64,000 bases of DNA from an uncultured Bacilli bacterium (GTDB lineage: Bacteria > Bacillota_I > Bacilli_A > RF39 > UBA660), in NCBI GenBank assembly GCA_944358535.1, contig CALVRH010000002.1, positions 27,840-91,839 on the forward strand, read 5' to 3'. Position numbers and translations under genes: made by a program. Shown here piece after piece: positions 2,108-63,152 of the stretch. Under the pieces are notes generated by a model. That model was given only the letters and a program-made list of their open reading frames with translations, did not search any database and had not been told where the DNA came from. Position 1 is the first letter of the stretch. Every line of letters begins with the position of its first letter.

Positions 2108-3865
2108 TTAATTGTATTCTATTATATCTTCAAACATTGATTCAATATTGTTTTTTGAATCATCTTCTTTAAAGATATCTTCTAATTTAAATTGTTCTTC
2201 TTTATAAATAAATGGTCTTAATTTATGATTAAAATCATTTTTAATTATTTCCCATTCATCTAAATTAGTTGCAATTAAATTATATTTTTTATTTAAAATT
2301 TTTTCAATAGTTTCTTCGAGAATTGGTAAATTTTCATTAAATAAGTCAGATAATCTATTTGTTTTAAAAACAAATATTAAATTTTCATCACTTGCAGCTT
2401 TTAAGGTACCATCTAAAATAATAGATGCTGAATGACTATATTCTGGGTCTAGTAATAAATCATTTAATAGTTCTAATGACGGGGTGATGTTTCTAACTTC
2501 TTGTTTGCTAAATTTAGCAAGCGTATTATCAATTCTAATTTGTTTTATTTTTTCAATATTATTTTTTAAGTTTTTGTTGATTTTTGGAATTTTTGGAGGT
2601 GTTTTAACTAATTCTTGAGTTGGTTTGTCGATTTCAACATTTTTTTTGTTTGGTTTTTGTTCGTTATTTTCGTTTTTATCATTAGAGTTTTCCACATTTT
2701 TTATTTGATTTTGTGGATAACTAACTATTTTTACTGAATTTTCATAATTTTTTTGTTCTAAACGTGCTTGTTCTGTGTTTTTTTCCACTATTTGTTGTTT
2801 TTTTTCAGAAATTATTTTAATAAGAGCTAATTCAAATAGTAATTTACTATTTGTATTATTTTTCATTTCAAAAGAGTATTTATTTAGTGTTTCAATGATT
2901 GTAAAAAGTTGATCTATATTAATTTTTGAAGAAATATTTTTATAAGTTTCAATATTTTTAGTATTTTCTTTAAAATAATTAGGTGCTTCTATAAATAAAA
3001 TAGTATTTCTTATAAATTCAATAAATTCTTCAATTAATTTAACAAAATCTTTTCCTTTATCATTATAGTTATCAATTTTTTTTAATATTTGATCTAATTT
3101 ATTATCTATTATGTTTTCTAATAGTTCACTTAGGTCTTCTTCGGTTAAAGTTCCGTTAATGTCATGAATATCATTTATGGTTATTTTTCCTTCGGTATAA
3201 GCTCTAGCTTGGTCAAGCATTCCGACAGAATCTCTCATTCCACCATCAGATAATTTTGCAATTTCATATAAGGCATTTTGATCAATATCTATTTCTTCTT
3301 TTTTGGCAATTTTACTAAGGTTTTCCACAATTGCATCATTGGTTATTTTTTTAAAATCTAATCTTTGACATCTAGATAGAATTGTTTCTAATACTTTGTG
3401 TGGATCTGTGGTGGCTAGAATAAATATTACATGAGCAGGGGGTTCTTCTAATGTTTTTAATAGGGCATTAAAGGCTCCTTGAGTAAGCATATGTACTTCA
3501 TCTATGATGTAAACTTTATATTTTCCATAAGCTGGTAATAAATTTATTTTATTTCTTAATTCTCTTATTTCATCGACACCATTATTACTAGCAGCATCAA
3601 TTTCAATAATATCGCTATTGTTTTCTTCTAAACAACTTACACATTTTCCACATGGCTTGCAATCTACGGGATGTTCACAGTTAATTATTTTAGCAAAGAT
3701 TTTGGCGATGCTGGTTTTACCAGTTCCTCTTGGACCAGCAAATAGGTAAGCATGGTTTATTTGATTATTTAGTATTGAGTTTTTTATAATTTTTACGATG
3801 ACATCTTGTCCACAGACATCATCGAGGGTTTTTGGTCTGTATTTTCTATATAATGCTTGATACAT
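2108..3865 (-). CDS. dnaX: DNA polymerase III subunit tau (gamma/tau)
   Basis: 585 aa with Walker A GPRGTGKTS, zinc module CGKCVSC, Walker B IIDEVHML and sensor SRCQRLDF, followed by a Lys/Asn-rich linker and C-terminal domain. Confidence 0.93.
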   Translation of the reverse strand: MYQALYRKYRPKTLDDVCGQDVIVKIIKNSILNNQINHAYLFAGPRGTGKTSIAKIFAKIINCEHPVDCKPCGKCVSCLEENNSDIIEIDAASNNGVDEIRELRNKINLLPAYGKYKVYIIDEVHMLTQGAFNALLKTLEEPPAHVIFILATTDPHKVLETILSRCQRLDFKKITNDAIVENLSKIAKKEEIDIDQNALYEIAKLSDGGMRDSVGMLDQARAYTEGKITINDIHDINGTLTEEDLSELLENIIDNKLDQILKKIDNYNDKGKDFVKLIEEFIEFIRNTILFIEAPNYFKENTKNIETYKNISSKINIDQLFTIIETLNKYSFEMKNNTNSKLLFELALIKIISEKKQQIVEKNTEQARLEQKNYENSVKIVSYPQNQIKNVENSNDKNENNEQKPNKKNVEIDKPTQELVKTPPKIPKINKNLKNNIEKIKQIRIDNTLAKFSKQEVRNITPSLELLNDLLLDPEYSHSASIILDGTLKAASDENLIFVFKTNRLSDLFNENLPILEETIEKILNKKYNLIATNLDEWEIIKNDFNHKLRPFIYKEEQFKLEDIFKEDDSKNNIESMFEDIIEYN

Positions 3866-3942: not shown

Positions 3943-4350
3943 TTACTTATTTCTTTTTGTTTTGAAAAAGTTTTTTAATAATTGAGAAGCTTTTTCCACA
4001 TTTTTTAATTGAATCATTGTAGGTTCTTTAAGGTTTGATTTTTTTTCTTGAGATGCAGCATAAATTACTTTTGATATTCTTGCCTGTTTTATTGTTTCTA
4101 AACACATTTTACATGGTTCTAGAGTCACATATAAAGTACAGTTGTCTAAGTGCCATGTTTTTTTCTTTTTACAGGCCTTTTCAATAGCATTTATTTCAGC
4201 ATGTCTTGTAATCATGTGAGTTTTTTCTCTTGTGTTATGTGCTTTAGCAATTATTTTATTGTTTTCTACTATGACTGCACCAATTGGAACATCATCTGTT
4301 TTTAAACTTTTTTTTGCTTCATTTAGGGCTATTTCTATGTATTTTTCCAT
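3943..4350 (-). CDS. tadA: tRNA-specific adenosine deaminase
   Basis: CDA-fold zinc motifs HAEINAI and PCKMC. ATG at 4350 is preceded by AGGTGG; the ORF-track GTG at 4359 overlaps that SD. Confidence 0.9.
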   Translation of the reverse strand: MEKYIEIALNEAKKSLKTDDVPIGAVIVENNKIIAKAHNTREKTHMITRHAEINAIEKACKKKKTWHLDNCTLYVTLEPCKMCLETIKQARISKVIYAASQEKKSNLKEPTMIQLKNVEKASQLLKNFFKTKRNK

Positions 4351-4370
4351 TATTACCACCTAATTAAAAA

Positions 4371-4443
4371 GGTACACACATTTAGAGGACCTTAAGGCTG
4401 CTATCTTCCGATTCTGACCTGGTTCAGCCATAAATGTTGTACC
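4371..4443 (-). ncRNA. ffs: small (4.5S-type) signal recognition particle RNA
   Basis: Reverse complement reads GGTACAACATTTATGGCTGAACCAGGTCAGAATCGGAAGATAGCAGCCTTAAGGTCCTCTAAATGTGTGTACC. It has the conserved helix-8 core CCAGGTCAG..CGGAAG..GCAGCC and a closing stem GGTACA/TGTACC. The locus next to tadA-dnaX matches the Bacillus scr neighbourhood. Ends approximate. Confidence 0.75.
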
Positions 4444-4605
4444 GATAATATAATATAATATTTTTTATAAAATTACAATTGTTTTTAATAAAAACAGTGT
4501 TTTTCCACAGTATTTTTTTTGATGATTTACATAGAATATAAAAAAATTTGCTATATATTTATGTGTATTAAATACATTTTTATTAATTTATACTGAATTA
4601 AATCA

Positions 4606-5924
4606 ATGTTTCACGTGAAACATTGTTATTACCTATATTTAAATTTTTTTACGTTTATTACAATTTAATAAAACATAATTATTTTGGCTTTTACTTGTTT
4701 TAAATAAATATTATTTGTTAATTTTGAAATTTTAAGTTGTAATTTTTTTATGTGATATATCCTATGTTTCACGTGAAACATTAAGTCTTTAAAAACTTTT
4801 TTTTAATATCAAGATTATATTTGATATTATATTATTTATATTAATAAAAAAAGGGGTTAATCAAAATAACTAATAAAAAGTAATGTATTTTAATAAATAA
4901 AAGGATAATTTAATTTAAATATATTAATTATATAATAACGTATAATATTGTTTATCATTTATAAAGTATAACAGATCAAAAATAGAAAACAATGTTTCAC
5001 GTGAAACATTGCATACCAGTATTTAAGTTTTAGTGGTTTATTGCAATTTGATAAAATATTCTTAATAAAACAAAACATAATCATTTTAGTTATTAATTGT
5101 TTTAAATAAATAATATTTATAAATTTTTAGATTTTAAGTTGTAATTCTTTTATGTGATATATTCTATGTTTCACGTGAAACATTAAGCCTGTGGAAAACT
5201 TTTTTATAAATATCAAGATTATATTTGATATTATATTATTTATATTAATAAATAAGGGTGTTTTACTTAAAATAACTAATAAAAAAACAATAATATATTT
5301 TAATAAATATAAGAATTTAATTTAAATATATTAATTATATAATAACGTATAATATTGTTTATTAGTTACAAGTATAACAAAAACAAAATAATAAACAATG
5401 TTTCACGTGAAACATTGTTTATTACCAGTATTTGAATTTTTAGTTATTTGTAGCATTTTAATAAAATATATTTATTTTAATTTTTATTTTAATTTAAATA
5501 AATATAATCTATTAATTTTAAAATATAAATTTAAAATTTTTGTATAATTATTTATCTTATGTTTCACGTGAAACATTAAGTCTGTGGAAAACTTTTTTTA
5601 TATTAAATATTTTTTACAAATAATATTTTATATTTTATATTTTATATCTTATTATTTTTTATTTAAAATTGAACAATGTTTCACGTGAAACATTGCATAC
5701 CAGTATTTAAGTTTTTAACGGTTTATTGCAATTTGATGAGAATATTTTTATAAAATATAATTATTTTGACTTTTACTTGTTTTAAATAAATAATATCTAT
5801 TATTTTTTGTTATCAATTTACATTTTCTTATGTGATATATCTATGTTTCACGTGAAACATTCACAAAAAAACGGTTTTGACACCGTTTTTAATTATACCT
5901 TTTTATATGTTTCACGTGAAACAT
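4606..5924. repeat. array of nine perfect parS sites inside a higher-order tandem repeat
   Basis: Exact 18-bp palindrome ATGTTTCACGTGAAACAT at 4606-4623, 4764-4781, 4992-5009, 5166-5183, 5398-5415, 5559-5576, 5676-5693, 5843-5860 and 5907-5924. The inner 16 bp equals the Bacillus parS consensus TGTTNCACGTGAAACA. Flanks alternate between two conserved types. Confidence 0.9.
5863..5890 (-). terminator. rho-independent terminator of gyrA
   Basis: Minus strand reads AAAACGGT-GTCAAA-ACCGTTTT followed by a T-run. Lies 40 bp after the gyrA stop, with one parS between stop and hairpin. Confidence 0.7.
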
Positions 5925-5927
5925 TGA

Positions 5928-8402
5928 TTATTCTTCTGAATTGTTTTCATTTTTTTGATTTTCAGAATCACTATTATCTTCTGATTCTTCTTTTATTAAT
6001 AAAGCTATACTACTTACTGTTTGGTTGTCTTTTAAATTGATTAATCTAACACCTTGGGCAACTCTTCCTGTTGTAGAAATTTGCTCGATTGGTAGTCTTA
6101 TTATTATTCCACTATTGGTAATTATCATTAAATCTTCATTACCTTTAACTATTTTGAATGAAACTATATTACCGTTTTTTTCGGTTATATTTAAGGCTTT
6201 AACACCTTTGCTACCACGATGTGTCATACGATATTCCTCAATATTTGTACGTTTTCCATAGCCTTTTTCTGTAACAACTAATATTTGTTCATTTGGATTG
6301 GCTATTTCACATCCAACACATTTACCATCGCCAAGATCTATACCTTTGACACCAGAAGCAGTTCTACCCATTATTCTAATTTCATTTTCATTAAATCTAA
6401 TCATACGACCATTTGAAGATGCAATTACTATTTCGTTTTCCCCATTTGTTTTCTTTACAGAAATTAATTGATCATTTTCTTTTAAAGAAATAGCAAGTTT
6501 TCCACTTTTTCTAATATTTTTGAATTCTTCAATAGCGGTTCGCTTTATTAATCCATTTTGTGTACAAAATACAATATTTTTATTTTCTTCATTTTGATTA
6601 ATTTTCAACATGGCAGTTACTTCTTCACTTTTTTCAAATGGCAATAAATTAACAATTGGTAAACCTTTTGATTGACGACTGTATTGTGGTATTTCATAAC
6701 CTTTTACTCTGTATGCTTTACCTTTATTAGTGAAGAACATTAAGTAATCATGAGTTGTCATTGATATAAGTGTTTCTACAAAGTCATCTTCATTAGTACT
6801 CATACCTTTGATACCAACACCACCGCGATTTTGTGTTTTATATGTTTCACTGGTCATACGTTTAATATAACCTTTATTTGTTAGTGTTACAACGATGTTT
6901 TCCACAGGTATGAGTGATTCATCCTCAATATAGTCAATTGCTGTCATATCTATGTTTGTACGTCTTTCATCACTATATTTATTCTTGATTTCTATCATTT
7001 CTTGTTTTATAATTTCTAAAACTTTAGCTTCTGATGCTAGAATTTCATTATAATATTTGATTTTTTCTAGTAAATCTTTTAACTCAGCTTCGATTTTTTC
7101 TCTTTCTAGGCCAGTTAAACGACGTAGTTTTAATTCTAGAATAGCTTCTGCTTGGACTTCAGTTAAACTATATTTAGCAATTAACTTAGTTTTTGCTTCT
7201 ACATCAGTTTTAGCATCTCTAATAATTTGAATAAAATCATCAATATTATCAAGAGCTATTTTATAACCTTCTAAGATATGAACTCTCTTTTCAGCTTTAT
7301 CTAAATCAAATCTTGTTCTTCTAATAATAACTTCTTTTTGATAATCAACATATTTTGAAATAATATCTTTTAACCCTAAAGTTCTTGGAGTATTATTATC
7401 AAGCATTAATAGAATAATTCCATATGTTGTTTGAAATTGGGTGTGTTTATATAAGTTATTCAAAACAACTTGTGGATTGGCATCTTTCTTTAATGTGATA
7501 GTTATTTTAATACCATTTTTTAAATCTGTATGATAGTCTGAGATACCATCAATTACTTTACTATGGACAAGTTCAGCTACTTTATCTTTTAAGTCTGAAG
7601 TATTTACACCATATGGAACTTCGTCGATAATAATGTAATGGCGACCATTTTTTTCTTCAATTGTAGCTTTACTTCTAATTGTAATTGTTCCACGACCTGT
7701 TTCATAGGCTTTTTTAATACCACTATTACCTAGAATAGTTGCACCGGTAGGAAAGTCTGGTCCTTTAATATACTGCATTAATCCATCGGTATCAATGTCT
7801 GGATTATCAATATAAGCAATACATCCATCAATTACTTCACCTAAATTATGCGGCGGAATATTGGTTGCCATACCAACAGCGATACCCATTGTTCCATTAA
7901 CTAAAATATTAGGGAAACGAGAAGGTAAAACAGTTGGTTCTTTTCTTGTTTCATCATAGTTTGTAGTGAAATCCACAGTATTTTTATTAATATCTCTTAA
8001 TAATTCTAAAGATATTTTGGCTAATCTTGATTCGGTATAACGCATGGCAGCGGCACCATAGCCTTCAATATTACCAAAATTTCCATGGCCATCAATTAAT
8101 GGGTAACGATAACTAAAGTCTTGTGCCATACGAACCATAGCTTCATAGATACTTGAATCACCATGTGGGTGATAATTACCCATTACTTCTCCGACAGTTT
8201 TTGCACTTTTCTTATGTGGTTTATCTGGGGTGTATCCAGATTCATACATTGAATATAAAATACGTCGATGTACAGGCTTTAAACCATCTCTTAAGTCGGG
8301 CAAAGCTCTTGATTTGATGACACTCATGGAATATTCAATAAATGATGATTCTATTTCATTTACAATGTTATTTTCTTCTAATCTATCTCTTGTATGATCC
8401 AT
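5928..8402 (-). CDS. gyrA: DNA gyrase subunit A
   Basis: 824 aa with [17 protein letters not shown], active-site region AAMRYTE and C-terminal beta-pinwheel repeats. Confidence 0.97.
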
Positions 8403-11595: not shown

Positions 11596-12048
11596 TTATG
11601 AATTTTTTCGATTTTTTAAAATTAATAGTAATTTTGTAGCTCTTAATACTTGATTTTCAAAAGATTCATAGGATATATTTAAATCAATTTGATGGTTTGT
11701 TTTGAATAAAATAGTTACTTTATTTCCATTTTTCTTATAATCAGAAATGTTTTTTAAAGATATCCAAGCACATTCATTATTTTTATATGATGTGGTTGGA
11801 AATAATATTATTTCTCTTGTTTCTTCAACAATTATAGGTAATTTATATTTACTTCCTAGAACTGTTTTGGCACCTTCTAATCTTCCTTTGAATGAACTAC
11901 CGTAATATGAACAACTATAATCAATAAGTTTATTAATTGGATATTCAATATTTGTTATTCCATTAATATCAATTATGGTTGTGGAAAAGTTATTTTCAGT
12001 TATTAAAGCGCAGGTAGTACTATTAATTTCATATGTTTTTGTATTCAT
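11596..12048 (-). CDS. comK: ComK-family competence transcription factor-like protein
   Basis: Matches B. subtilis ComK blocks: SCSYYGSSFKGR (SCRFFGSSYAGR), KLPIIV..ILFPTTSYKNNECAWIS and ISYESFENQVLR (ISYNSFENQVYR). ATG at 12048 follows AGGGAGGA. Confidence 0.75.
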   Translation of the reverse strand: MNTKTYEINSTTCALITENNFSTTIIDINGITNIEYPINKLIDYSCSYYGSSFKGRLEGAKTVLGSKYKLPIIVEETREIILFPTTSYKNNECAWISLKNISDYKKNGNKVTILFKTNHQIDLNISYESFENQVLRATKLLLILKNRKNS

Positions 12049-12151
12049 AATTCCTCCCTTTGTCAAATGACATATCTCTTATACTCATTTTATAGGTCGA
12101 ATTTTGTTACTTTTTGTCATATAAAGGGAATTTTTAAAAAAAAAGAACTTT

Positions 12152-13329: not shown

Positions 13330-13410
13330 AAGTGTGGAAAAGTGTAATTTTACACCATAAATAAAGGTGTTTTACACTGTTTATAAAATGTGGAAAAGTG
13401 TGGATATTTT
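13330..13410. other. oriC part 2: DnaA-box cluster in the dnaA-dnaN spacer
   Basis: TGTGGAAAA at 13333-13341 and 13389-13397, TGTGGATAT at 13399-13407, in an AT-rich 150-bp spacer. Confidence 0.75.
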
Positions 13411-13422
13411 TATTTTTTTCCA

Positions 13423-14766
13423 CTACTTAATTTGATTTACTATTTTTGAAATTTCTACTTCAAGATTTTTATCTTTTTTTAGTTCTCTTTTTATTTTAGC
13501 AACTGAGTGCATTACTGTTGTATGATCTTTTCCACCAAATTCACTACCTATTTTTGGTAATGATTCTTTTAAATATACTCTACATATATACATACCTATT
13601 TGTCTTGGTACAGATATTTTGGATAATCTTTTTTTAGATTTTATATCTTCTACAGTAATGTTGTAATTGTTAGCTACTAACTGTATTACTTGATCTATTT
13701 TATTTCTAGATATTATGTTTTTTCCAATGTAATCTTTTAGAGCTTCAACGGCAAGCTCAAGAGTTATTTCAGATCCATTCATTATAGTAGCATAAGCAAA
13801 TACTCTAGTCAAAGCACCTTCTAATTTTCTGATGTCTGTGGTGCAGTTATTTGCGATATATTCTTTTACTTCTTCAGGTACATAACTTCCAATTCCTTGT
13901 GCTTCTATTTTTTTATCGAGTATTGCCATTCTTAGTTTAAAGTCAGGTGGTAAAATATCTATTGTTAATCCCCAATTGAATCTAGTTCTTAGTCTTTCTT
14001 CTAATTTTTTTAAATCATCTGGTGATCTATCAGAAGATATTATTATTTGTTTGTTTTTATTATGTAGTTCGTTAAAAGTGTTGAAAAATTCTTGTTGGGT
14101 TTTACTAGCTATTTCAAGGTATTGAATATCGTCAATCATGAGGACATCAATGTCACGGTATTTTCTTTTAAAGTTATCCACAGCTTTGAAATTACTTGTT
14201 TCATTTTTTCTATATATATTAAGAAAATCATCAACAAATTTTTCACTTGTTACGTATAAAACTTTTTTATTTGATGTAGATACTATATAGTTACCTATGG
14301 CATGCATTAGGTGAGTTTTTCCTAAACCGCTACTACCGTATATAAATAGTGGATTGTACATAGCACCTGGTTTTTCTGCAACAGCAAGTCCAATAGCTTT
14401 TGCAAATTTATTACTTTCTCCTGAAATAAAGTTATCAAAATTATATTTACTATCTAAGCCACTTTCAAATGTTGCTTCATTGTTATCAGTTATTTCTGTT
14501 TGAGGTTTATCTTCGGTTACTTCTTCTGGGGTAACATATTTAAATTTGAAGATAGATCCAGTTACTTCCATAAATGTTTCTTTTATTATGTCGCTATAGT
14601 TTTCTTGCAGATGTTTTTTATGTACATCTAGCGGTACTTCTACTATTGCATATTCGTTATTTAAATCAATTAATTTTGTGTCTTGAAACCATGTTTGATA
14701 TAAAACTGGTTTTAATTTTATCTCTATTTTAGATAAAAAAACGGACCAAATACTTTCTAAATCCAT
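13423..14766 (-). CDS. dnaA: chromosomal replication initiator protein DnaA
   Basis: Walker A GSSGLGKTHL, Walker B MIDDIQYL and C-terminal DNA-binding signature HTTVMHSVAKI. ATG at 14766 (MDLESIWS) chosen over the longer ORF-track start. Confidence 0.95.
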   Translation of the reverse strand: MDLESIWSVFLSKIEIKLKPVLYQTWFQDTKLIDLNNEYAIVEVPLDVHKKHLQENYSDIIKETFMEVTGSIFKFKYVTPEEVTEDKPQTEITDNNEATFESGLDSKYNFDNFISGESNKFAKAIGLAVAEKPGAMYNPLFIYGSSGLGKTHLMHAIGNYIVSTSNKKVLYVTSEKFVDDFLNIYRKNETSNFKAVDNFKRKYRDIDVLMIDDIQYLEIASKTQQEFFNTFNELHNKNKQIIISSDRSPDDLKKLEERLRTRFNWGLTIDILPPDFKLRMAILDKKIEAQGIGSYVPEEVKEYIANNCTTDIRKLEGALTRVFAYATIMNGSEITLELAVEALKDYIGKNIISRNKIDQVIQLVANNYNITVEDIKSKKRLSKISVPRQIGMYICRVYLKESLPKIGSEFGGKDHTTVMHSVAKIKRELKKDKNLEVEISKIVNQIK

Positions 14767-14835
14767 ACTACTACCCCCAATGGTTATAAACAATCTATAA
14801 ACATTTTACATTATTTTTACGTTTTTTTCTATAAA

Positions 14836-15064
14836 AACTGTGGAAAAAGATAAAAAAAATTATTAACAGGTTTTTTTTGTCGAAATTTAGGGGTTTTTGT
14901 AAAATTTCCACATATTATGTGGATAATTATTTTTGCACATTTGTGCATAAGTTTTTATTTTACACATATGTTGAAAAATAGTAAAAATGGTTTATAATAT
15001 AGGACTAACTTATGTGGAAATGTAATGTGAATAAAAGTTGAAAATATTTTACTGTGGAAAACTT
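14836..15064. other. oriC part 1: DnaA-box cluster upstream of dnaA
   Basis: TGTGGAAAA at 14839-14847 and 15053-15061, ATTTCCACA at 14904-14912, consensus TGTGGATAA (TTATCCACA) at 14918-14926, TGTGGAAAT at 15013-15021. A very AT-rich stretch follows. Confidence 0.8.
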
Positions 15065-24104: not shown

Positions 24105-24803
24105 ATGAATTTAAATGAATTTAAAGTTGAAGTAGATAAATTAGGTATTAAGGTTACTGAAGAGGAGATAAGTAAATTAGAAAAGTATGCTTTACTTTTA
24201 AAAGATTGGAATGGAAAAATTAATTTGACTGCTATAACCGAAAAAGAACAAGTGTTTTTAAAACATTTTTATGATAGTTTAACTTTAGTTAAAATAATTG
24301 ATTTAAGTAAAATTGATAGTATATGTGATTTAGGAACAGGAGCTGGTTTTCCTGGAGTTGTACTTAAAATATTTTTTCCTAATTTAAAATTAACTTTGGT
24401 TGACGCTTTAAATAAAAGAATTAATTTTTTAGATGTTGTAGTTAAAGAGTTAAATTTGGAAAATGTTACTTTAGTGCATGCAAGAGCAGAAGAATATGGT
24501 AAAAATCATAGAGAATGTTTTGATGTTGTGACAGCTAGAGCTTTATCTAGTTTTCCTATTTTACTTGAGTATGGAATACCTTTATTAAAAACCTGTGGCC
24601 ATTTGATTGCAATGAGGGGTTTAAATGATAGTGTTGATGGGGTTAATGCGCTTAAAGTTTTAAATTCGAAAATTAATAATATTATTGAGTTTAAATTACC
24701 TTTTGAAGAGAGTAATAGAACTTTAGTTGATATAGTAAAAATTTCTCAAACTTCTTTGAAGTATCCTAGAAGGTATGCAGAAATTAAAAAGAAACCAATT
24801 TAA
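24105..24803 (+). CDS. rsmG: 16S rRNA (guanine527-N7)-methyltransferase
   Basis: 232 aa with SAM motif DLGTGAGFPG. Confidence 0.92.
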   Translation: MNLNEFKVEVDKLGIKVTEEEISKLEKYALLLKDWNGKINLTAITEKEQVFLKHFYDSLTLVKIIDLSKIDSICDLGTGAGFPGVVLKIFFPNLKLTLVDALNKRINFLDVVVKELNLENVTLVHARAEEYGKNHRECFDVVTARALSSFPILLEYGIPLLKTCGHLIAMRGLNDSVDGVNALKVLNSKINNIIEFKLPFEESNRTLVDIVKISQTSLKYPRRYAEIKKKPI

Positions 24804-24915
24804 GAAGTTTATAATATAAACTTTATCATTTTTTATGGTAAAGTTTTTTAAATGGTTGAATTATTTTCTAAAAAATAGTATGATAAAGTAAAAGAATAGA
24901 AGGGAGGGGTGGATT

Positions 24916-26643
24916 GTGCTTGAAAACGGTCAATTAATGGTGCTCAATATGCGTGATATTCTTCCTAACAGATTTCAGCCACGTATTAGATTTGATGAAG
25001 AAAAATTAGAAGAGTTAGCAGATTCAATAAGTAAATATGGCGTTATTCAACCAATTGTGGTTAGAACTGTTGGAAATAAGTTTGAAATTATTGCGGGCGA
25101 AAGACGTTTTAAAGCTAGCAGACTTGCAAATAGATCTACCATCCCAGCTATTGTACTTAATTTATCAGATAAGGATAGTGAAGAGATTGCTTTACTTGAA
25201 AATGTTCAAAGGCAAGAGTTAAATCCAATTGAGGAAGCTGTTTCATATAAGCGAATTTTAGATATGGGATATATTACTCAGGAGGAACTTTCTAGAAAAA
25301 TAGGTAAATCGCAATCTACGATTGCAAATAAGATAAGGTTACTTAATTTGGATGATGAAGTTCAAAGTTATTTACTTAATAATAAGATTTCTGAAAGGCA
25401 TGCAAGAAGTTTACTTAGAATTTCTGATAAGGAAAAACAAGTGGAAATGCTTCATAGAATAGTTGAAGAAAGATTAACTGTTAAACAAACAGATAAAGAA
25501 ATTGCTAAGATTAGAGAAACTGAAAAATCTGTTAAACCAGTTGATTTAAATATTCCTGTTAAAAAAAATGTTCAACCAGTGGTAAATCCTGTTAGTAAAT
25601 CTGAGGAAATTGAGAGTTTATTTGATGATGATTTTGATAAGAATGAAGGGGGAGATAGTATGGATATAGATAGGATTATGCGTGAAGCTAAAGATATAAA
25701 TTCTGCTTCTATACCAGAGGCAAAAGATATTTCTAATTTAATGGTTCCGGGTGAAATGTCTGGTCAACCAGTTAATCAACCTATGCCTGAGGTTCAACCA
25801 GTAGAAGAGATGGAAGCAAAGAAATTTATTAATGTAGAATCTCCAACTGAAACACCTAAGCAGGTGGAGCACCCAGTTAATAATACAGTTACTTTTGATA
25901 GTATGTTTAATCAACATGTTACGCCAGTAGCTACGCCAGAAGGTCAAGTTATGAGTAATACGCAACCTACTCCTTCAATAAATGATTCTTCTAGTATTCC
26001 AGCGCCGTCTGTTACACCAAATGTTTCACTGGTAGAAAGTATGTCAACACCTTCAGAGACAGTGAATGATTTTTCGACTATGCCTCCTACTATAAATAAT
26101 AATGTAGTTAGTTCTACAGATAGTTCAATGTCAGAGGTAAGTGGAGATAATAATGTTTCATCAATTCCTGAAATTTCAAATGTAGATGTTAATAATTTAA
26201 ATGTTGGTCCAAATATTTATAGCAATTCTGAATCTGATGATATTTCTTTAGATACGAAGAAATCTATTTCATCCGCAGTGGCTAGTGCTCTTAAAAAATA
26301 TCATGAAAATAAGGCTCGTCAAAGTTTAGCTAATACAATTCCATCGCCTACTGCTAATGTTACTCCTTCAGTGAATAATGTTAATACAGTAAATATTCCA
26401 GATATGGATATTATTGCATCTGATACATTGAATGAGTATTCAAACAAAAATGTTCAACCAACGATGGCTAGTACAATTAGTCAAGATGTTAAACCGGTTA
26501 ATAATCAAGTTAGTTTTGCAAATGTTGTGAAAATGCTTAGAGATTGTGCTGATAGAATTGAACAAAACGGATATTTTGTTAATATGGACGAATTAGATTT
26601 AGGTAATCAATATAAGGTTACTTTTACAATTAATAAGGAATAA
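24916..26643 (+). CDS. parB: ParB/Spo0J-family partition protein with a very long low-complexity linker
   Basis: The N-terminal ~200 aa is canonical: ParB box GERRFKAS and HTH ELSRKIGKSQSTIANKIRLLNL. About 330 aa of Ser/Pro/Asn/Val-rich sequence follows, then a short structured C-terminus. GTG start follows GGAGGGG. Confidence 0.88.
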   Translation: MLENGQLMVLNMRDILPNRFQPRIRFDEEKLEELADSISKYGVIQPIVVRTVGNKFEIIAGERRFKASRLANRSTIPAIVLNLSDKDSEEIALLENVQRQELNPIEEAVSYKRILDMGYITQEELSRKIGKSQSTIANKIRLLNLDDEVQSYLLNNKISERHARSLLRISDKEKQVEMLHRIVEERLTVKQTDKEIAKIRETEKSVKPVDLNIPVKKNVQPVVNPVSKSEEIESLFDDDFDKNEGGDSMDIDRIMREAKDINSASIPEAKDISNLMVPGEMSGQPVNQPMPEVQPVEEMEAKKFINVESPTETPKQVEHPVNNTVTFDSMFNQHVTPVATPEGQVMSNTQPTPSINDSSSIPAPSVTPNVSLVESMSTPSETVNDFSTMPPTINNNVVSSTDSSMSEVSGDNNVSSIPEISNVDVNNLNVGPNIYSNSESDDISLDTKKSISSAVASALKKYHENKARQSLANTIPSPTANVTPSVNNVNTVNIPDMDIIASDTLNEYSNKNVQPTMASTISQDVKPVNNQVSFANVVKMLRDCADRIEQNGYFVNMDELDLGNQYKVTFTINKE

Positions 26644-26647
26644 GTTT

Positions 26648-27850
26648 ATGAAAGATATGGAAGAGTTAATTAATTATTGTTTAAATTGTCCTACTAAACC
26701 TTGTAGGAAAGGTTGTCCCTTAGAAAACAATATTCCAGATTTTATTAAAGCAGCTAAGAATCAAAAGTTTTTAGATGCTTTTAATATACTTAGTGAAACA
26801 ACGGTTTTATCATCTATATGTGGAAGAATTTGTCCTTTTAATAAACAATGTGAAGGAAATTGTGTAAGAAGATTAAAAGGTGAGCCTGTTCAAATTGGTA
26901 AAATAGAGGCTTATATTGGTGATAAGTTTTTAGATAGTGATTATCCTTTATTTTCAAGTATGAATGAAAAAAATAAAAATAAAGTAGCGATAGTTGGTGG
27001 AGGTCCAGCGGGTTTAACTTGTGCGGCTTTTTTGAAGAAGTTCGGTTATGATGTGACAATATTTGAAAAATATGATTATTTAGGAGGAATTATCAGTCAT
27101 GGTATTCCTAGTTTTAGGTTGGATAAAGAGGTTACTTTAAAGACTTTTAAAAAGATTATTGATTTAGGAATTAAAGTTGAATTTAATAAAGAACTTGGGA
27201 GAAATTTGTCACTAAAAAAATTGAAAAAGAAGTTTGATGCAATATTTCTAGGATTTGGTGCGAACAAATCGAAAATATCTAATATAAAAGGTAAAAAATT
27301 ACCTAATGTGTATGGAGCTAATGAATTTTTAGAAAGTAAAAGAAAATTAGACTTGTATAATAAAAACGTTATAGTAATTGGAGCTGGCGATGTGGCAATG
27401 GACATGGCTAGAACAGCTAGAAAATGGGGCGGTAATGTTTTAACAATTTATTACCGTGAAAAAAAATATATGAAGGCTGATGCTTTTCAAGTTAAATTGG
27501 CATGTGAAGAAGGTGTTGATTTTCTTTTTAATACAACTTTAAAACAAATAATTAAAAATAATATCGGTTATAAAGCATATTTTATTAATAAGAAGGGAAT
27601 AAAATTTGTTTATCCTTGTGACTATGTGTTTTTTGCTATTGGTTCAAAAACGGACGAAAAAGTTACTAAAAAATTAGGTTTGAAATTGGATATTAATGGA
27701 TATATTAAAACTGATAAAAAGCAAATGACATCTATGGAAGGCGTGTTTGCTGGTGGTGATTTGATAGGTATTGAACAAACAGTTGCACATGCTGCTCGTT
27801 CTGGTAGAGATGCAGCTTATAATATTGATTTATATTTGACAAAAAAATGA
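26648..27850 (+). CDS. GltD-like NAD(P)H-dependent Fe-S flavin oxidoreductase
   Basis: N-terminal Cys clusters (CPTKPCRKGCP, CGRICP..CEGNC), then VAIVGGGPAGL and GAGDVAMD dinucleotide folds. Confidence 0.7.
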   Translation: MKDMEELINYCLNCPTKPCRKGCPLENNIPDFIKAAKNQKFLDAFNILSETTVLSSICGRICPFNKQCEGNCVRRLKGEPVQIGKIEAYIGDKFLDSDYPLFSSMNEKNKNKVAIVGGGPAGLTCAAFLKKFGYDVTIFEKYDYLGGIISHGIPSFRLDKEVTLKTFKKIIDLGIKVEFNKELGRNLSLKKLKKKFDAIFLGFGANKSKISNIKGKKLPNVYGANEFLESKRKLDLYNKNVIVIGAGDVAMDMARTARKWGGNVLTIYYREKKYMKADAFQVKLACEEGVDFLFNTTLKQIIKNNIGYKAYFINKKGIKFVYPCDYVFFAIGSKTDEKVTKKLGLKLDINGYIKTDKKQMTSMEGVFAGGDLIGIEQTVAHAARSGRDAAYNIDLYLTKK

Positions 27851-36940: not shown

Positions 36941-37966
36941 TTATTTTTTTGGATCAATCATAATTTTTACCGCATCATCTGTTCCACTTGTTAATCTTTC
37001 ATAAGCTTTTTGGGTTTCTTCAAGTGGTACAATATCATCGACAAATTTCATAACATCTATTTTTTTATTTGCCATTAAACTTATACAATTTTTAAATTCT
37101 TCTTTTGTATATGCGATTGCACCTTTAATTGTTAATTCTTTCATAACCGCAATTACAGATGCAAATTCTATTGGTTTAGGTGATACACCAACTAAGACAA
37201 TTGTTCCACCTGGTCTAACTGTCATTAATTCACTTTCTACAGCTTTAGTAGTACCAGAACAGTCTATTACAACATCAAATCCATTAGGAATTTTAGTAAA
37301 AATATTATTTAAAAAGTTTTCATCTTTAGCATCGAACCAATCATCAGCAACATTTAGTTTTACTGATTTTTTGCCTCTAGCTTCATTTGTTTCACTTACG
37401 GCAACAAATTCAGCACCTTCTAGTTTAGCAAACATAGCTGAGACTAGACCGATAATCCCACCACCAACAATTAAAACTTTATCTCCGACTCTAATGTCAG
37501 CTAAATGAACAGCATGTAAGCCAACTGCTGTTGGTTCAACCATTGCACCCTCTTCATCTGTAATATTATCTGGTAATTTTAATACCATGTCTGGTCTTAT
37601 TGCTATTGTGCTTGTTAATCCGCCTGGATTATCTAATGATAGTCCAATGGCATGAGTCCAAGTTTCTGAACAATACTGTGGATTTCCTGTTTCACATGCT
37701 TCACAGTTCCCGCATGGTGAGATAGGTAGAGCAGTTACTCTATCTCCAATTTTTAAATCTGTTCTACTACCAGGATTTACAACTTTACCTGTAAATTCAT
37801 GTCCCATTATTAAACCTTTAGGTTCTCCAGCATCCCAGTTATGGATATCTGAACCACATATTCCGGTTTTTATTATGTCAATTATTACTTTGTTATTATC
37901 TGGTTTTGGAGCATCTACATCGGCTATTTTAAATTTCTTTATATCTTCTAATATTGCAGCTTTCAT
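36941..37966 (-). CDS. zinc-dependent medium-chain alcohol/polyol dehydrogenase
   Basis: GICGSDIH, GHEFTG, structural zinc CGNCEACETG, NAD fold VGGGIIGL. Confidence 0.85.
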   Translation of the reverse strand: MKAAILEDIKKFKIADVDAPKPDNNKVIIDIIKTGICGSDIHNWDAGEPKGLIMGHEFTGKVVNPGSRTDLKIGDRVTALPISPCGNCEACETGNPQYCSETWTHAIGLSLDNPGGLTSTIAIRPDMVLKLPDNITDEEGAMVEPTAVGLHAVHLADIRVGDKVLIVGGGIIGLVSAMFAKLEGAEFVAVSETNEARGKKSVKLNVADDWFDAKDENFLNNIFTKIPNGFDVVIDCSGTTKAVESELMTVRPGGTIVLVGVSPKPIEFASVIAVMKELTIKGAIAYTKEEFKNCISLMANKKIDVMKFVDDIVPLEETQKAYERLTSGTDDAVKIMIDPKK

Positions 37967-38057
37967 TATATCCCTCCATTATGATTATAACATTTGTTAA
38001 ATTATGAAGAATAAAAAAATTAAAAATATTTTTAAATTTTACTTTTAGTATACTAAA

Positions 38058-38085
38058 AGTAGTATGCAATTTTATGCATACTACT
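38058..38085 (-). terminator. hairpin downstream of the collagen-like gene
   Basis: AGTAGTATGCA-6 nt-TGCATACTACT followed by TTT on the minus strand. Confidence 0.45.
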
Positions 38086-38094
38086 TAATTGTAA

Positions 38095-39180
<1,086 letters not shown>

Positions 39181-57767: not shown

Positions 57768-57778
57768 AAGTTTTTTGA

Positions 57779-57836
57779 TTTTTTTCATGGGAAAAAAGGA
57801 AATACGTTTTTTACGTCGTATGTTTATATATGAAGG
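57779..57836 (+). repeat. conserved 58-nt leader, copy 1 (upstream of Rpn-like gene 1)
   Basis: TTTTTTTCATGGGAAAAAAGGAAATACGTTTTTTACGTCGTATGTTTATATATGAAGG. Nearly identical copy at 58774-58831. Confidence 0.8.
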
Positions 57837-57864
57837 GATAAAAAGGGACTTAGAAAGGAGAACT

Positions 57865-58761
57865 ATGAAAATAGACGAAAATTATCTTGCAGATTTAGAT
57901 CAAAAATTATCTTTAATACCACTCAGCTATGATAGAGCTTTTAAAAGTGTTTTTAAAATTAATTTAGATATTTTAAAAGATTTCTTAAAAGTAGCTATCC
58001 CTACAAATATAAACGATGATGATAGTATTAATCTTTTGGATAGCGAAATATCTGTCACAAGTAAAAATGAATATCAAAAAAATTCCTTTATATTAGTAGT
58101 CATTAATAATAAAATATATATTGAAGTAGAAGTGGATAAAAGCAAATTAGAATATGTATCTGACCATAACTTTTCATATAGAGATATAATATTTACCAAA
58201 GTTATTAATACAAAAGAATATCTAAATTGTTTAATATATAATTATGTATATCATCTTGATTTAAATGAAAGTTCGTATGAAGATGTTTTAGAAGATGAAA
58301 TAGTTTTATATGGTCAAAAAACTCATAAAATATATATTCCTAATAGTCGTACATTCACTAAAGCCTTAAAACTTTATAGGAATTTATATTACAATAAAGG
58401 TGATAGAAGACCAGAAGTTATATGGTATACATTATTTACAGCAAAGACATTTAGTGAGTTATATGAATTAGCTAAGAATGTAATGGATGAGACGAAGGTT
58501 CAAAAGTTAATGGAGGCGGTTATAAATATGAGTAAAGATGAGGTTATTATTCATGAGTGGCAGAAAGAAAAGATGGATGCTTTAGTTAAACATAATGAAC
58601 TTGAAGGAGCAAAAAAAGAAGTCAAAGATGAAGAAATTAAAGAGAGTACATTTGAAACAGCTAAAAAATTACTCAATATGAAAATGAGTATAGAAGATAT
58701 TTCAAAAGCAACTGGTCTAACTGCAGAAGAAATTAAAAAAATTAAAAATACTGAAAATTAA
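57865..58761 (+). CDS. Rpn/YhgA-like PD-(D/E)xK nuclease family (putative transposase) protein
   Basis: N-terminal LSYDRAFKSVFK and C-terminal AKKLLNMKMSIEDISKATGLTAEEIKKI, typical of this family. ATG follows AAAGGAG. Confidence 0.55.
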   Translation: MKIDENYLADLDQKLSLIPLSYDRAFKSVFKINLDILKDFLKVAIPTNINDDDSINLLDSEISVTSKNEYQKNSFILVVINNKIYIEVEVDKSKLEYVSDHNFSYRDIIFTKVINTKEYLNCLIYNYVYHLDLNESSYEDVLEDEIVLYGQKTHKIYIPNSRTFTKALKLYRNLYYNKGDRRPEVIWYTLFTAKTFSELYELAKNVMDETKVQKLMEAVINMSKDEVIIHEWQKEKMDALVKHNELEGAKKEVKDEEIKESTFETAKKLLNMKMSIEDISKATGLTAEEIKKIKNTEN

Positions 58762-58773
58762 AGAAATTCAGTA

Positions 58774-58831
58774 TTTTTTTCATGAAAAAAAGGAAATACG
58801 TTTTTTACGTCGTATGTTTATATATAGAAGG
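58774..58831 (+). repeat. conserved leader, copy 2
   Basis: Same sequence as 57779-57836 apart from a 1-nt indel and two substitutions. Confidence 0.8.
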
Positions 58832-58862
58832 TAGTTTTATCTTCTTAGAAGGAGGTTATAGC

Positions 58863-59744
58863 TTGAAAAATAAGCTAAATAAAGATTTTTTTGTATGGTT
58901 AGATCAATTTTATAATGTATTTCCTATGACTTATGATTATACGTTTAAAGATATTTTTAAAAATCACCCTTGGCTTTTACGAGAATTTGTTGGAGATATT
59001 TTAGATTTACGTTTTATAAATGAGTGTGACATATATTTTGAAGATGATTATTTAAAGGAAAAAGCAGATGAGTATGGCAAATTTGTACGTATATATATTG
59101 TTATAGATGATCATATTGATTTAGTTGTCAGAGTTAATCGTGAACTTTTTGAAAAAGATTATTTTCAAAATAATTTACATGAAAATGATTGGTTTAATAA
59201 TTTGAAAAGAAAAGGTGAAAAGTTAAATAATGATAAAAAAGAAAAATTACGTAAAACTGTGGAAGAAGATGATTTTGATAATGATTATATACGAGTAATG
59301 TATGAAATGGAAGATGTTGGTAGCGATATTATAAGAGGTGTTCATCAAATATCTATTTTTGTATATACTTCTCATTATAGAAAATTATATTTTGAAGAGG
59401 GTTATAGAAATAAAAAAACCATATGGCTGGCTGCTTTAGATCCTAAATCTTATACAGAGTTATATGAATTGATGAATCAAATTTTAGATAGCCGATTATT
59501 ATATATGTTTATGAGTTACGTTATAGAGATGAGTAGTAATAATGATATAGAATATATGCTGCAAAAAGAAAGTTATAGGAAAATGAGAATACGTGAAAAA
59601 TATGAAATTAAAAAAAATAATGCAATTAAGGAAAAACAATTAGAAATTGCAGATAAGATGCTTGAAGAAAATATTGATTTGAATACAATTTCTAAAATAG
59701 CCTCTTTAACCATAGATGAAATCAAAAAACGTACTGAAGAATAA
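58863..59744 (+). CDS. Rpn/YhgA-like family protein, paralogue 2
   Basis: MTYDYTFKDIFK and C-terminal ADKMLEENIDLNTISKIASLTIDEIKK. TTG start follows AAGGAGG. Confidence 0.5.
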   Translation: MKNKLNKDFFVWLDQFYNVFPMTYDYTFKDIFKNHPWLLREFVGDILDLRFINECDIYFEDDYLKEKADEYGKFVRIYIVIDDHIDLVVRVNRELFEKDYFQNNLHENDWFNNLKRKGEKLNNDKKEKLRKTVEEDDFDNDYIRVMYEMEDVGSDIIRGVHQISIFVYTSHYRKLYFEEGYRNKKTIWLAALDPKSYTELYELMNQILDSRLLYMFMSYVIEMSSNNDIEYMLQKESYRKMRIREKYEIKKNNAIKEKQLEIADKMLEENIDLNTISKIASLTIDEIKKRTEE

Positions 59745-60382: not shown

Positions 60383-61363
60383 ATGCGTGAACTCTTTGAA
60401 ATATTAAATGAAAATATAAAAAAGCATGATGAAATTATAATAATGACCCATGCTAGACCTGATTTAGATGGTATGGGGTCTAGTTTGGCTTTATATAAAA
60501 TTATTTCTTCTATGAAAAAGAAATGTTTTATTGTATCTCCTAAGGAAAAGTTATATCGTTCTTTGGATAAGGCAATGAAATTGCTTTCAGAAAATGATAT
60601 CAATTTTGAGTTTAGAAGTGAAGATGATATTTTAAATAATAAATTTAATAAGCCTTTGCTTGTTGTTTTAGATACGCAAAAAACTGAATTAGTTGAGTCA
60701 GAAAAAGTACTTGATTTGATAGATGATAAAATTGTTATTGATCATCATATTGGAAGTTTAGATTCGATTGATGATACCATTTACAAATATAGCGATGCCA
60801 ATAAGTCTAGTATTGTTGAAGTTATGGCCGAGTATTTAAATTATTTAGATTTAAAAATAGAACCATTAATTATGACAGTTTTGCTTTCTGGAATGGTGGT
60901 TGATACTAGTAGTTTTAACATTAAGACAACCGCTAGAACTTTTGATATGGCTTCTTATTTAGCTCGTAATGGTGCAGATTTTGTTATTATTCAAGATTTA
61001 CTTAAGGAACCAAGAGAAGAAATGGTTCAAAGGTATAGTTTTATAAGTAATAGTGTAGAAGTGGTTCCTGATGTACTTATGTGTAAGATGGATGATAAGA
61101 TACATGGTAATGTTGATATTGCACTTTTAGCTAAGGAGTTACTTAAATTTGAAGATATTAAAGCGTCTTTTGCAATTGGCAGGTTATCACAAAGTATTGT
61201 TGGAGTTAGTGCAAGATCTATGGGAAATGTAAATGTTGGAGAGATTATGGAAAAGATTGGTGGCGGTGGTCATTTAACGGACGCGGCCGCTCAAATTAAA
61301 GGTAAAAGTGTAGATGAGGTGGCAAAAGATTTAGAAAAAGTTATTAAGGATGTGATAAAATGA
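60383..61363 (+). CDS. stand-alone DHH/DHHA1 phosphoesterase (GdpP catalytic-domain homologue)
   Basis: HARPDLDGMGS, IVIDHH and GGGH motifs. Sits directly upstream of rplI-dnaB, where Firmicutes carry gdpP/yybT. Confidence 0.8.
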   Translation: MRELFEILNENIKKHDEIIIMTHARPDLDGMGSSLALYKIISSMKKKCFIVSPKEKLYRSLDKAMKLLSENDINFEFRSEDDILNNKFNKPLLVVLDTQKTELVESEKVLDLIDDKIVIDHHIGSLDSIDDTIYKYSDANKSSIVEVMAEYLNYLDLKIEPLIMTVLLSGMVVDTSSFNIKTTARTFDMASYLARNGADFVIIQDLLKEPREEMVQRYSFISNSVEVVPDVLMCKMDDKIHGNVDIALLAKELLKFEDIKASFAIGRLSQSIVGVSARSMGNVNVGEIMEKIGGGGHLTDAAAQIKGKSVDEVAKDLEKVIKDVIK

Positions 61364-61797
61364 GAGTTATATTACTTCAAGATGTTAAGAAACAAGGTAA
61401 AAAAGATGATATAATAGAAGTTAAAGATGGTTATGGAAATTATTTAATTAACAATAAATTAGCAGTTTTAGAAACTAAAGGTAGCAGTAAGGTTTTGAAG
61501 AAGCAGCAGGAAGAGGCGGCTTTAGAGGAGTCTTTACTTTTAAAAGATTGCGAGGATATTAAAACTAAGTTAGAAAAAATGACTTTGAATTTTAAAGTAA
61601 ATACTGGTAAAAATGGTCAGGTATTTGGTCAGATTAGTACTAAACAAATATCTGATAAACTTAAGGAAAAAGGATTTAATATTGATAAAAGAAAAATTAA
61701 ATTAGATGTACCTATTAATACTTTAGGAACGACGAATGTTAAAGTTATTTTACATAAAAAGGTGGAGGCTACTTTAAAAATACATTTGGAGAAGTAG
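61360..61797 (+). CDS. rplI: 50S ribosomal protein L9
   Basis: MRVILLQDVKKQGKKDDIIEVKDGYGNYL. Confidence 0.95.
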   Translation: MRVILLQDVKKQGKKDDIIEVKDGYGNYLINNKLAVLETKGSSKVLKKQQEEAALEESLLLKDCEDIKTKLEKMTLNFKVNTGKNGQVFGQISTKQISDKLKEKGFNIDKRKIKLDVPINTLGTTNVKVILHKKVEATLKIHLEK

Positions 61798-61805
61798 GTG
61801 ATTAG

Positions 61806-63152
61806 ATGAATGAAAGAGCAATGCCGCAGAAGATAGATGCAGAGCAAGCTATTTTAGGTTCGATGTTTTTAAGTGAGAAAGCGCTTGAATTAATTATTGA
61901 GCGTTTAAATAAAGATATGTTTTATTTAGATTCTCACAAAAAAATATTTGAGACTATTAAAAATTTGGCTGATAAAAAGATTCCAATTGATATCACAACG
62001 GTTACAGCGGAGCTTGAGCGAAAGAAACTACTTAATCAAATTGGTGGGGTTGAATATTTAACCCAGATAATTAATATTGTTCCAACGGCCGCTAATGCGG
62101 AAGAATATGTTAAAATAGTTGAAGAAAAATATTTAAGACGTAATTTGATTGAGGCAGGAACAGATATTGCGAATGCGGGTTTTTCTTCTACAGAAGATAT
62201 TGGAGATATTTTAGACGAAGCTGAAAAGAAAATATTTGATGTGGTTAAAAACAGAAGAGGTTCTGAGTTTAAAAGTATTCAAGATGTTTTGTTTAAAGCA
62301 CAAGCTGATTTAGAGAAACTTTCTTCAATGAAAGGTGAGATTACGGGTGTTCCTTCTGGATATTATGATATTGATAGATTAACAGCTGGTTTTCATGAAA
62401 ATGAACTTATAATTATTGCTGCTCGTCCAGCTATGGGTAAGACAGCGTTTGCAGTTAATTTGGCGGTTAATATGGCAATGAATGCAAAAAAAACTGTGGC
62501 TTTATTTAATATGGAGATGGGAGCTGAACAACTTATTAGTCGTATGCTTTCTTCTGTTGGACAGATTGAGGCTTCTAAACTTCGTACAGGAAAATTAGAG
62601 CATCAAGATTGGAAAAGGGTGAATGAAGCTATTAGTAGATTAGCTGATACGAGAATATTTATTGATGATACTCCAGGTATGACTGTTAGTGAGATTAGAG
62701 CAAAATGCAGGAGATTAGCTAATTCAGAAAATGGTCTTGATATTGTTATTATCGATTATTTGCAGTTAATTAGTGGTTCTGCAAGATATGCTGGTCAAAG
62801 GCAACAAGAAGTATCTGAAATATCTAGATCTTTAAAAACTATGGCGATGGAGCTTAATATTCCGGTTATTGCTCTTGCCCAACTTTCACGTAGTGTTGAG
62901 GGAAGAGAAGATAAAAGACCATTACTTTCTGATTTAAGAGAGTCCGGATCTATTGAGCAAGATGCAGATATAGTCGCATTTTTATACCGTGATGATTATT
63001 ATAATAAAGAAAGTGCGATAGATGAAAATACAAGTAAAAGTGAATTTATTATTTCAAAGCATCGTAGTGGTCCTACTGCAACAGTTAATTTGATTTTTAA
63101 ACGAGATACGAGTTCATTTTTTAATATGGAAAATAGTCAGGTAGGTGAGTAA
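61806..63152 (+). CDS. dnaB: replicative DNA helicase (DnaB; DnaC in Bacillus nomenclature)
   Basis: 448 aa with Walker A ARPAMGKTAF, IIDYLQLI and SRSVEGREDKRPLLSDLRESGSIEQDAD. Confidence 0.95.
   Translation: MNERAMPQKIDAEQAILGSMFLSEKALELIIERLNKDMFYLDSHKKIFETIKNLADKKIPIDITTVTAELERKKLLNQIGGVEYLTQIINIVPTAANAEEYVKIVEEKYLRRNLIEAGTDIANAGFSSTEDIGDILDEAEKKIFDVVKNRRGSEFKSIQDVLFKAQADLEKLSSMKGEITGVPSGYYDIDRLTAGFHENELIIIAARPAMGKTAFAVNLAVNMAMNAKKTVALFNMEMGAEQLISRMLSSVGQIEASKLRTGKLEHQDWKRVNEAISRLADTRIFIDDTPGMTVSEIRAKCRRLANSENGLDIVIIDYLQLISGSARYAGQRQQEVSEISRSLKTMAMELNIPVIALAQLSRSVEGREDKRPLLSDLRESGSIEQDADIVAFLYRDDYYNKESAIDENTSKSEFIISKHRSGPTATVNLIFKRDTSSFFNMENSQVGE

Follow-up and report, generated by a model that had tools for sequence, protein, structure and literature searches.

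The DNA analysed here, referred to as the window, is a 64-kb (64,000-nucleotide) stretch from an uncultured Bacilli bacterium. It contains a gene-free spacer with a GC content of 0.17-0.22, bordered by ffs and tadA on one side and by the 3' end of gyrA on the other, and all nine exact matches to the 18-mer ATGTTTCACGTGAAACAT in the window lie inside this spacer (Table 1). The GC skew changes sign at about 15 kb of the window, and the skew switch together with the DnaA-box clusters places the array about 9-10 kb from oriC. The order gyrA-array-tadA is kept in related genomes. A preliminary description of the region had reported nine exact copies of the palindrome at the positions listed in Table 1, the perfect match of their inner 16 bp to the Bacillus-type parS consensus, the lack of further copies in the rest of the window, the gene-free spacer with its flanking genes, and a distance of about 9 kb to oriC; each of these observations was reproduced.

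Table 1. Features of the array locus, the origin region and the ParB-family gene, in window coordinates
Feature	Position	Strand	Remarks
tadA	3943-4359		
ffs (small SRP RNA)	4356-4453	-	Rfam RF00169, 60.8 bits; first gene downstream of the array on the minus strand
Gene-free spacer	4454-5927		1474 bp, from ffs to the gyrA stop codon; contains the whole array
Higher-order units	4596-5930	+	U1 to U4
Unit U1	4596-4981	+	
Unit U2	4982-5387	+	
Unit U3	5388-5665	+	truncated
Unit U4	5666-5930	+	truncated
parS 1	4606-4623		type A; extended 22-bp palindrome CAATGTTTCACGTGAAACATTG
parS 2	4764-4781		type B; context CTATG...CATTAAG
parS 3	4992-5009		type A
parS 4	5166-5183		type B
parS 5	5398-5415		type A
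parS 6	5559-5576		type B
parS 7	5676-5693		type A
parS 8	5843-5860		type B
Terminator-like hairpin and U-run for gyrA	5862-5897	-	between parS 8 and parS 9; -10.6 kcal/mol, z = -2.96
parS 9	5907-5924		neither type; 3 nt downstream of the gyrA stop codon
gyrA	5928-8402	-	stop codon at 5928; 3' end adjoins the array
oriC region	13333-15061		DnaA-box clusters at 13333-13407 and 14839-15061, either side of dnaA; GC-skew switch
ParB-family gene, Noc-type	24916-26643	+	575 aa; only ParB-family gene in the window

All nine sites are perfect 18-bp palindromes that enclose the 16-bp Spo0J/ParB consensus TGTTNCACGTGAAACA, and none of them deviates from this consensus at any position. No match to ATGTTTCACGTGAAACAT was obtained across 100 dinucleotide shuffles, and the base composition predicts 1.4e-5 copies of the 16-mer per 64 kb. 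Besides the nine, the window holds no site with two or fewer mismatches to TGTTNCACGTGAAACA; the three matches with three mismatches, for which 1.56 are expected, are at chance level. The roughly 83 kb of sequence available for the species, comprising the window and flanking contigs, contains no copy of ATGTTTCACGTGAAACAT elsewhere. Within the spacer, no Rfam family and no excess of promoter-like sites was detected, and the array shows no plasmid or phage similarity. Several short open reading frames that start with MFHVKH (30-49 aa, window 4606-5924) were considered as genes and rejected as translations of the palindrome, which gives rise to such frames at several sites because the 18-mer starts with ATG on both strands.

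In the array, a two-site unit of about 400 bp occurs four times in tandem, and two of these copies (U1 and U2) are full-length at 386 and 406 bp. In each unit, a type-A site (CAATG...CATTG) is followed by a spacer of about 160-175 bp, a type-B site (CTATG...CATTAAG) and a tail no longer than about 230 bp; U4 also holds the ninth site, and the distance from one site to the next varies irregularly between 64 and 232 bp. Pairwise identity of the units is 73-87%, corresponding to 13-27% divergence of the intersite DNA, and the longest exact repeat within the array measures 49 bp, while all nine 18-mers are identical. Invariant 18-mers in diverged units indicate constraint or homogenization acting on the sites and argue against an assembly artefact. 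The array grew through tandem duplication of the two-site unit, not through nine independent insertions, and the number of units still varies between strains.

Contigs of the same species from other samples reproduce the tadA-proximal site spacings, and eight of the ten retrieved carry between one and nine of the sites. Most short-read contigs of the species break off inside the array. A contig from another metagenome (L001) shows the same nine sites at the same spacings; it is 100% identical to the window over 6 kb and may not be fully independent of it. Compared with window 4440-5420, positions 1-1320 of contig L005 contain an extra unit of 231 bp, which brings in a further parS, directly after the ffs-proximal site, and the copy number of the array is therefore polymorphic within the species.

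Comparable loci were collected in two scans. The first, with one genome per species, selected two perfect parS sites 100-160 nt apart and yielded at least 120 matches; the second selected, in metagenomes, Noc-binding sites (NBS) located within 6-66 nt of a parS and yielded at least 120 loci. Both samples are pattern-selected, and counts derived from them show the existence and wide spread of such arrays and are not measures of prevalence.

Among the genome-scan matches listed, 17 GTDB species representatives are relatives of the window species, with GyrA proteins 63-82% identical and records labeled as uncultured Bacilli, Tenericutes or Mycoplasma and, in one case, as Candidatus Onthocola. All 17 contain a parS cluster of 2-10 perfect sites in the gyrA-tadA-dnaX neighbourhood, so the conservation of the array in related genomes, which the preliminary description had singled out as a check, was borne out for the relatives listed. 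The flanking A and T of the 18-mer are kept at 76 of the 77 sites of these genomes, and the site used by the clade is therefore effectively the 18-mer. The sites are kept in relatives and are constrained relative to the flanking DNA, and sequence comparison indicates that they are under selection and maintained at this locus across the whole clade.

Within a pattern-selected sample of complete gyrA-tadA spacers, 68 of 75 hold at least one consensus parS, with a median of three and a maximum of seven. One relative (L065) has nine perfect sites and one single-mismatch site with a 55-bp period between tadA and dnaX, and a tenth perfect parS in its gyrA-tadA spacer. Because the spacers of relatives hold one to seven consensus sites and L065 has ten perfect ones, the nine sites of the window appear as the upper end of a continuum rather than as a singular event. 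More generally, because the gyrA-tadA spacer contains one to seven consensus parS in most related low-GC uncultured Bacilli, the array is an enlarged form of an origin-proximal parS cluster shared by the lineage.

The preliminary description had set the array apart from the layout of typical chromosomes, with their dispersed and partly degenerate sites, and had considered it exceptional and closer to that of plasmids. The contrast is accurate for Bacillus subtilis, which shares with the window an identical 16-bp core (TGTTNCACGTGAAACA) and a similar gene order around oriC (gyrA-gyrB-recF-dnaN-dnaA / rnpA...rsmG-noc). B. subtilis has about 8-10 parS, several of them degenerate and intragenic, across a large origin domain, and its soj-spo0J genes adjoin noc, whereas the window has nine perfect sites in 1.3 kb and no soj-spo0J beside its noc-like gene. 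The comparison with plasmids is less apt. Plasmid centromeres such as F sopC and P1/P7 parS resemble the array in that ParB-family sites are iterated in tandem in one non-coding block. However, plasmid arrays have short regular periods and plasmid-specific sequences and lie beside a parAB operon, while the array described here has the chromosomal consensus. A plasmid-type iterated centromere was rejected as a classification on the grounds of the irregular spacing (64-232 bp), the conserved chromosomal location, the absence of parAB nearby and the lack of plasmid or phage similarity.

Dense chromosomal clusters of parS have been described before and prove to be common, and in this respect the array is not very unusual. 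Among the genome-scan matches listed, 17 of 120 have at least five perfect parS within 1.5 kb, and these dense clusters are spread over many phyla, with Lachnospiraceae, Treponema, Paceibacterota, Saccharibacteria, Bdellovibrionales and others represented. In Myxococcus xanthus, 24 parS, most of them within about 3 kb, are found about 30 kb from oriC (PMC3778016; bioRxiv 10.1101/2021.05.05.442810). Both loci pack many consensus sites, with roughly 130-150 bp per site, into a short stretch close to the origin that would form one compact ParB loading zone, and the density of nine sites in 1.3 kb is about equal to that of the M. xanthus cluster. In view of M. xanthus and the other taxa, the claims of an exceptional layout and of a general contrast with chromosomes do not stand. 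The two clusters differ in their setting: the M. xanthus sites lie just upstream of parAB, whereas no parAB is found here within about 83 kb, and the present array lies between gyrA and ffs/tadA and consists of identical 18-mers within a recent tandem duplication. Corynebacterium glutamicum, with 10 parS in 35 kb, 73 kb from oriC (PMC7083940), resembles the window in that its identical consensus sites form one cluster, mostly intergenic and on one side of the origin, but this cluster is about 25-fold less dense. One parS is enough for function in that organism (PMC7083940), which implies that multiplicity of sites is not essential.

The gene at 24916 had been taken to encode the ParB that binds these palindromes. 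Its product is indeed a ParB-family protein, with an N-terminal CTPase domain and a helix-turn-helix domain (PF02195, 2.5e-30; PF17762, 1.1e-33), but its scores and specificity residues mark it as Noc-type and not as a canonical ParB, and it is probably not the protein that binds parS. It matches Noc structures with 212 and 177 bits and Spo0J structures with 158-160 bits; among the NCBIfam models, nucleoid_noc (TIGR04285) gives 273.9 bits, under its cut-off of 315, and parB_part gives 165. Four positions (173, 179, 184 and 201 in Caulobacter numbering) determine the specificity of these proteins; Caulobacter ParB has R-T-A-G at them, and Noc has Q-K-K-R (PMC7383237). In a mutational scan, parS-specific variants always contained R173, while Q173 and R201 in combination with a lysine at position 179 or 184 resulted in NBS preference, one lysine being reported as enough (PMC7383237). 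The 24916 protein has Q173, K179, N184 and R201, and hence matches Noc at three of the four positions, with asparagine at 184. Its recognition region (GKSQSTIANKIRLLNL...SERHAR) provides Q173 and R201 in place of the R173/G201 pair of canonical ParB/Spo0J proteins. The Q-K-N-R reading is invariant across 14 homologues of 60-80% identity. As a control, R173/G201 was present in 28 of 28 sampled ParB genes beside parS clusters of unrelated taxa among the matches listed. The CTP-binding motifs GERRFKA and ENVQRQ are intact and invariant.

In other respects, the protein departs from the Noc proteins of Bacillus and Staphylococcus (PMC7383237, PMC8429893). Noc possesses an N-terminal, 10-aa amphipathic membrane-targeting helix (PMC8429893). 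This helix is absent from the 24916 protein, residue 9 of which aligns to Noc residue 30, and no N-terminal extension is possible, as a stop codon at 24889 interrupts the frame. The protein also has a linker, about 300 aa long and containing conserved islands (e.g. MDIDKIMREAKDIN and VTFDSMFNQ), and a conserved C-terminal domain; long homologues (535-635 aa) are plentiful in gut metagenomes. Set against these differences, and against a score below the NCBIfam Noc cut-off, Noc is the best match, and the specificity residues, the location of the gene directly after rsmG and the occurrence of NBS in relatives are Noc-like. The protein is thus a Noc-type paralogue that is predicted to bind NBS (TATTTCCCGGGAAATA) and probably not parS.

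No second ParB-family gene and no ParA Walker-A motif was found in the window, and neither ParB nor ParA was found in about 10 kb past each window end (L001 and L133). The gene order in window 24105-27850 and 60383-63152 (rsmG, noc-like gene, ..., DHH-family gene, rplI, dnaB) corresponds to that of B. subtilis minus soj-spo0J. A relative represented by a 1.0-Mb contig (L131) has the same order around its noc-like gene, and soj-spo0J is likewise absent there.

A search for NBS (ATTTCCCGGGAAAT) returned none in the roughly 83 kb of the window species, and in the window none even with three mismatches to the 16-mer. Relatives, by contrast with the window species, contain many perfect NBS (TATTTCCCGGGAAATA). 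In four loci, these are interleaved with parS in one array (L024 2258-2963, L047 1146-1799, L014 2962-3225 and L090 549-1560); in L024, a circular long-read metagenome-assembled genome (OZ006970.1), a 126-bp unit with one NBS and one parS is repeated 5.6 times. All composite loci among the metagenome matches listed are of low GC content (0.19-0.38), and 117 of the 120 are situated in the gyrA/tadA/dnaX neighbourhood; a ParB-family helix-turn-helix matching the search motif was found in none of these 120. The clustering of NBS near oriC, interleaved with parS, differs from the scattered distribution of NBS in Bacillus and Staphylococcus. Because perfect NBS are present and conserved in relatives, an NBS binder is likely to be active in the clade, which fits the prediction from the specificity residues. 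Taken together, the presumed NBS binder and the residue-based prediction suggest that another protein recognizes parS.

NBS were also noted within dnaX. Six relatives have a perfect copy inside this gene (L095 5578, L087 4859, L047 3555, L079 2248, L090 2700 and L032 5260); five of the six share its reading frame, in which it encodes ISREI, and the surrounding protein sequence is not conserved. The homologous position in the window (2798-2815, minus strand, in dnaX) encodes IISEKK and keeps only the left half-site, and is therefore a decayed NBS.

Based on these data, the reading that we favour, with reasonably good confidence, is that the array is a true centromere of the chromosome, in which nine parS of presumed high affinity cluster near the origin, with the canonical ParB probably encoded outside the window and the 24916 protein being of the Noc type. 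It is this Noc-type character of the 24916 protein that places the cognate ParB probably outside the window. Points against this reading are that no canonical ParB or ParA gene was found in the window or in about 10 kb to either side, that soj-spo0J is missing from the ancestral, Bacillus-like position after noc, which leaves the separate ParB an inferred one, and that the roughly 83 kb of the species show no NBS for the Noc-type protein. In a mechanism adopted from established ParB biology, each site would serve as a nucleation point for dimers of canonical ParB/Spo0J, which would bind CTP, form closed clamps and slide to flanking DNA. Nine adjacent loading sites would increase the loading flux and create one compact ParB zone covering oriC, which would in turn recruit SMC, and ParA/Soj if present, for origin segregation. 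The centromere-like zone for ParB and SMC loading that the preliminary description had envisaged is thus the best reading of the array, while the exceptional density attributed to it is matched in M. xanthus.

Alternatively, the 24916 protein might itself be the cognate ParB and load at the nine sites, perhaps as the last ParB-family protein of a reduced genome. It is the sole ParB-family gene product in about 83 kb around oriC, soj-spo0J is gone from its ancestral position, the CTP-binding motifs are retained without change, and the species has many parS yet no visible NBS. These points have to be weighed against the recognition residues: Q173, K179 and R201 stand opposite to the R173 invariably found in parS-specific variants (PMC7383237) and to the R...G combination of every sampled parS-adjacent ParB, and relatives with an identical recognition helix have perfect NBS. 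On balance, the 24916 protein is improbable as the parS binder.

The palindromes could also serve a role unrelated to ParB, as binding sites for another CACGTG-binding regulator, as hairpin terminators or as a selfish miniature repeat. On the minus strand, type-A sites with the T-runs that follow them do resemble terminator hairpins by score, but the ParB consensus is matched at all 16 positions, the sites occur in one origin-proximal spacer instead of being dispersed, the same spacer is used throughout the clade, and neither plasmid or phage similarity nor an RNA family was detected, which makes such a role very unlikely. Least credible of all is an artefact of metagenome assembly with inflated copy number or mis-joined units, since, although most short-read contigs of the species end within the array and L001 may not be independent, ordinary reads and k-mers resolve units as divergent as these with exact repeats no longer than 49 bp, contigs from other samples repeat the tadA-proximal spacings, and relatives have similar arrays, including one in a circular long-read genome.

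The array itself adds a well-defined natural parS cluster, very dense and fully homogeneous, that comes from a gut lineage without cultured members. It may provide a natural test case for the scaling of ParB and SMC loading with site number, and it is a recognized obstacle to short-read assembly, as most contigs break off within it. The wider context carries more weight: throughout the clade the centromere stays in a single spacer, many members interleave parS and NBS, and the Noc-type protein of the clade is without the membrane helix that defines nucleoid occlusion. The interleaved parS/NBS arrays of relatives and the helix-less Noc paralogue are the more novel lead compared with the nine-site array, and no description of a composite parS/NBS block in combination with a helix-less, long-linker Noc paralogue was found in the literature searched.

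A tentative model, to which we give somewhat less than even odds, would regard the spacers around tadA, mainly that between gyrA and tadA, as a shared loading platform in this clade, with canonical ParB at parS, the helix-less, long-linker Noc paralogue at NBS, and the two kinds of site often alternating in one tandem repeat. The window species would then be a derivative that lost its origin-proximal NBS, with the decayed site in dnaX, and in which parS expanded to nine. A more radical variant, in which soj-spo0J was truly lost and the Noc-type protein itself loads at parS against the published specificity code, is improbable. If two ParB-family clamps were indeed loaded side by side at the origin, this would constitute a new way to coordinate origin segregation with a second function, and would offer a naturally occurring test of the switch between ParB and Noc specificity.

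Several further observations concern other parts of the region. Two adjacent open reading frames of about 320 aa (window 57775-59744), located between whiA and a DHH-family gene, have no confident Pfam match, and their counterparts in other contigs of the species give weak or faint HTH_Rpn_C matches only. A GC-rich island on the minus strand (window 36941-39081), with a GC content of up to 0.42 compared with about 0.27 and a reversed GC skew, contains genes for a zinc alcohol dehydrogenase and for a collagen-triple-helix-repeat protein, both of which run opposite to the adjacent genes; the island is possibly of foreign origin, or the repeat protein might be exosporium-like. Between recF and dnaN lies a ComK-family gene (window 11596-12066, minus strand; PF06338, 7.5e-38). 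Finally, about 3 kb past the right end of the window, contig L133 contains a SpoIIR-family gene (14242-14769), and this small, 27%-GC lineage of uncultured Bacilli therefore has at least one sporulation-family gene.
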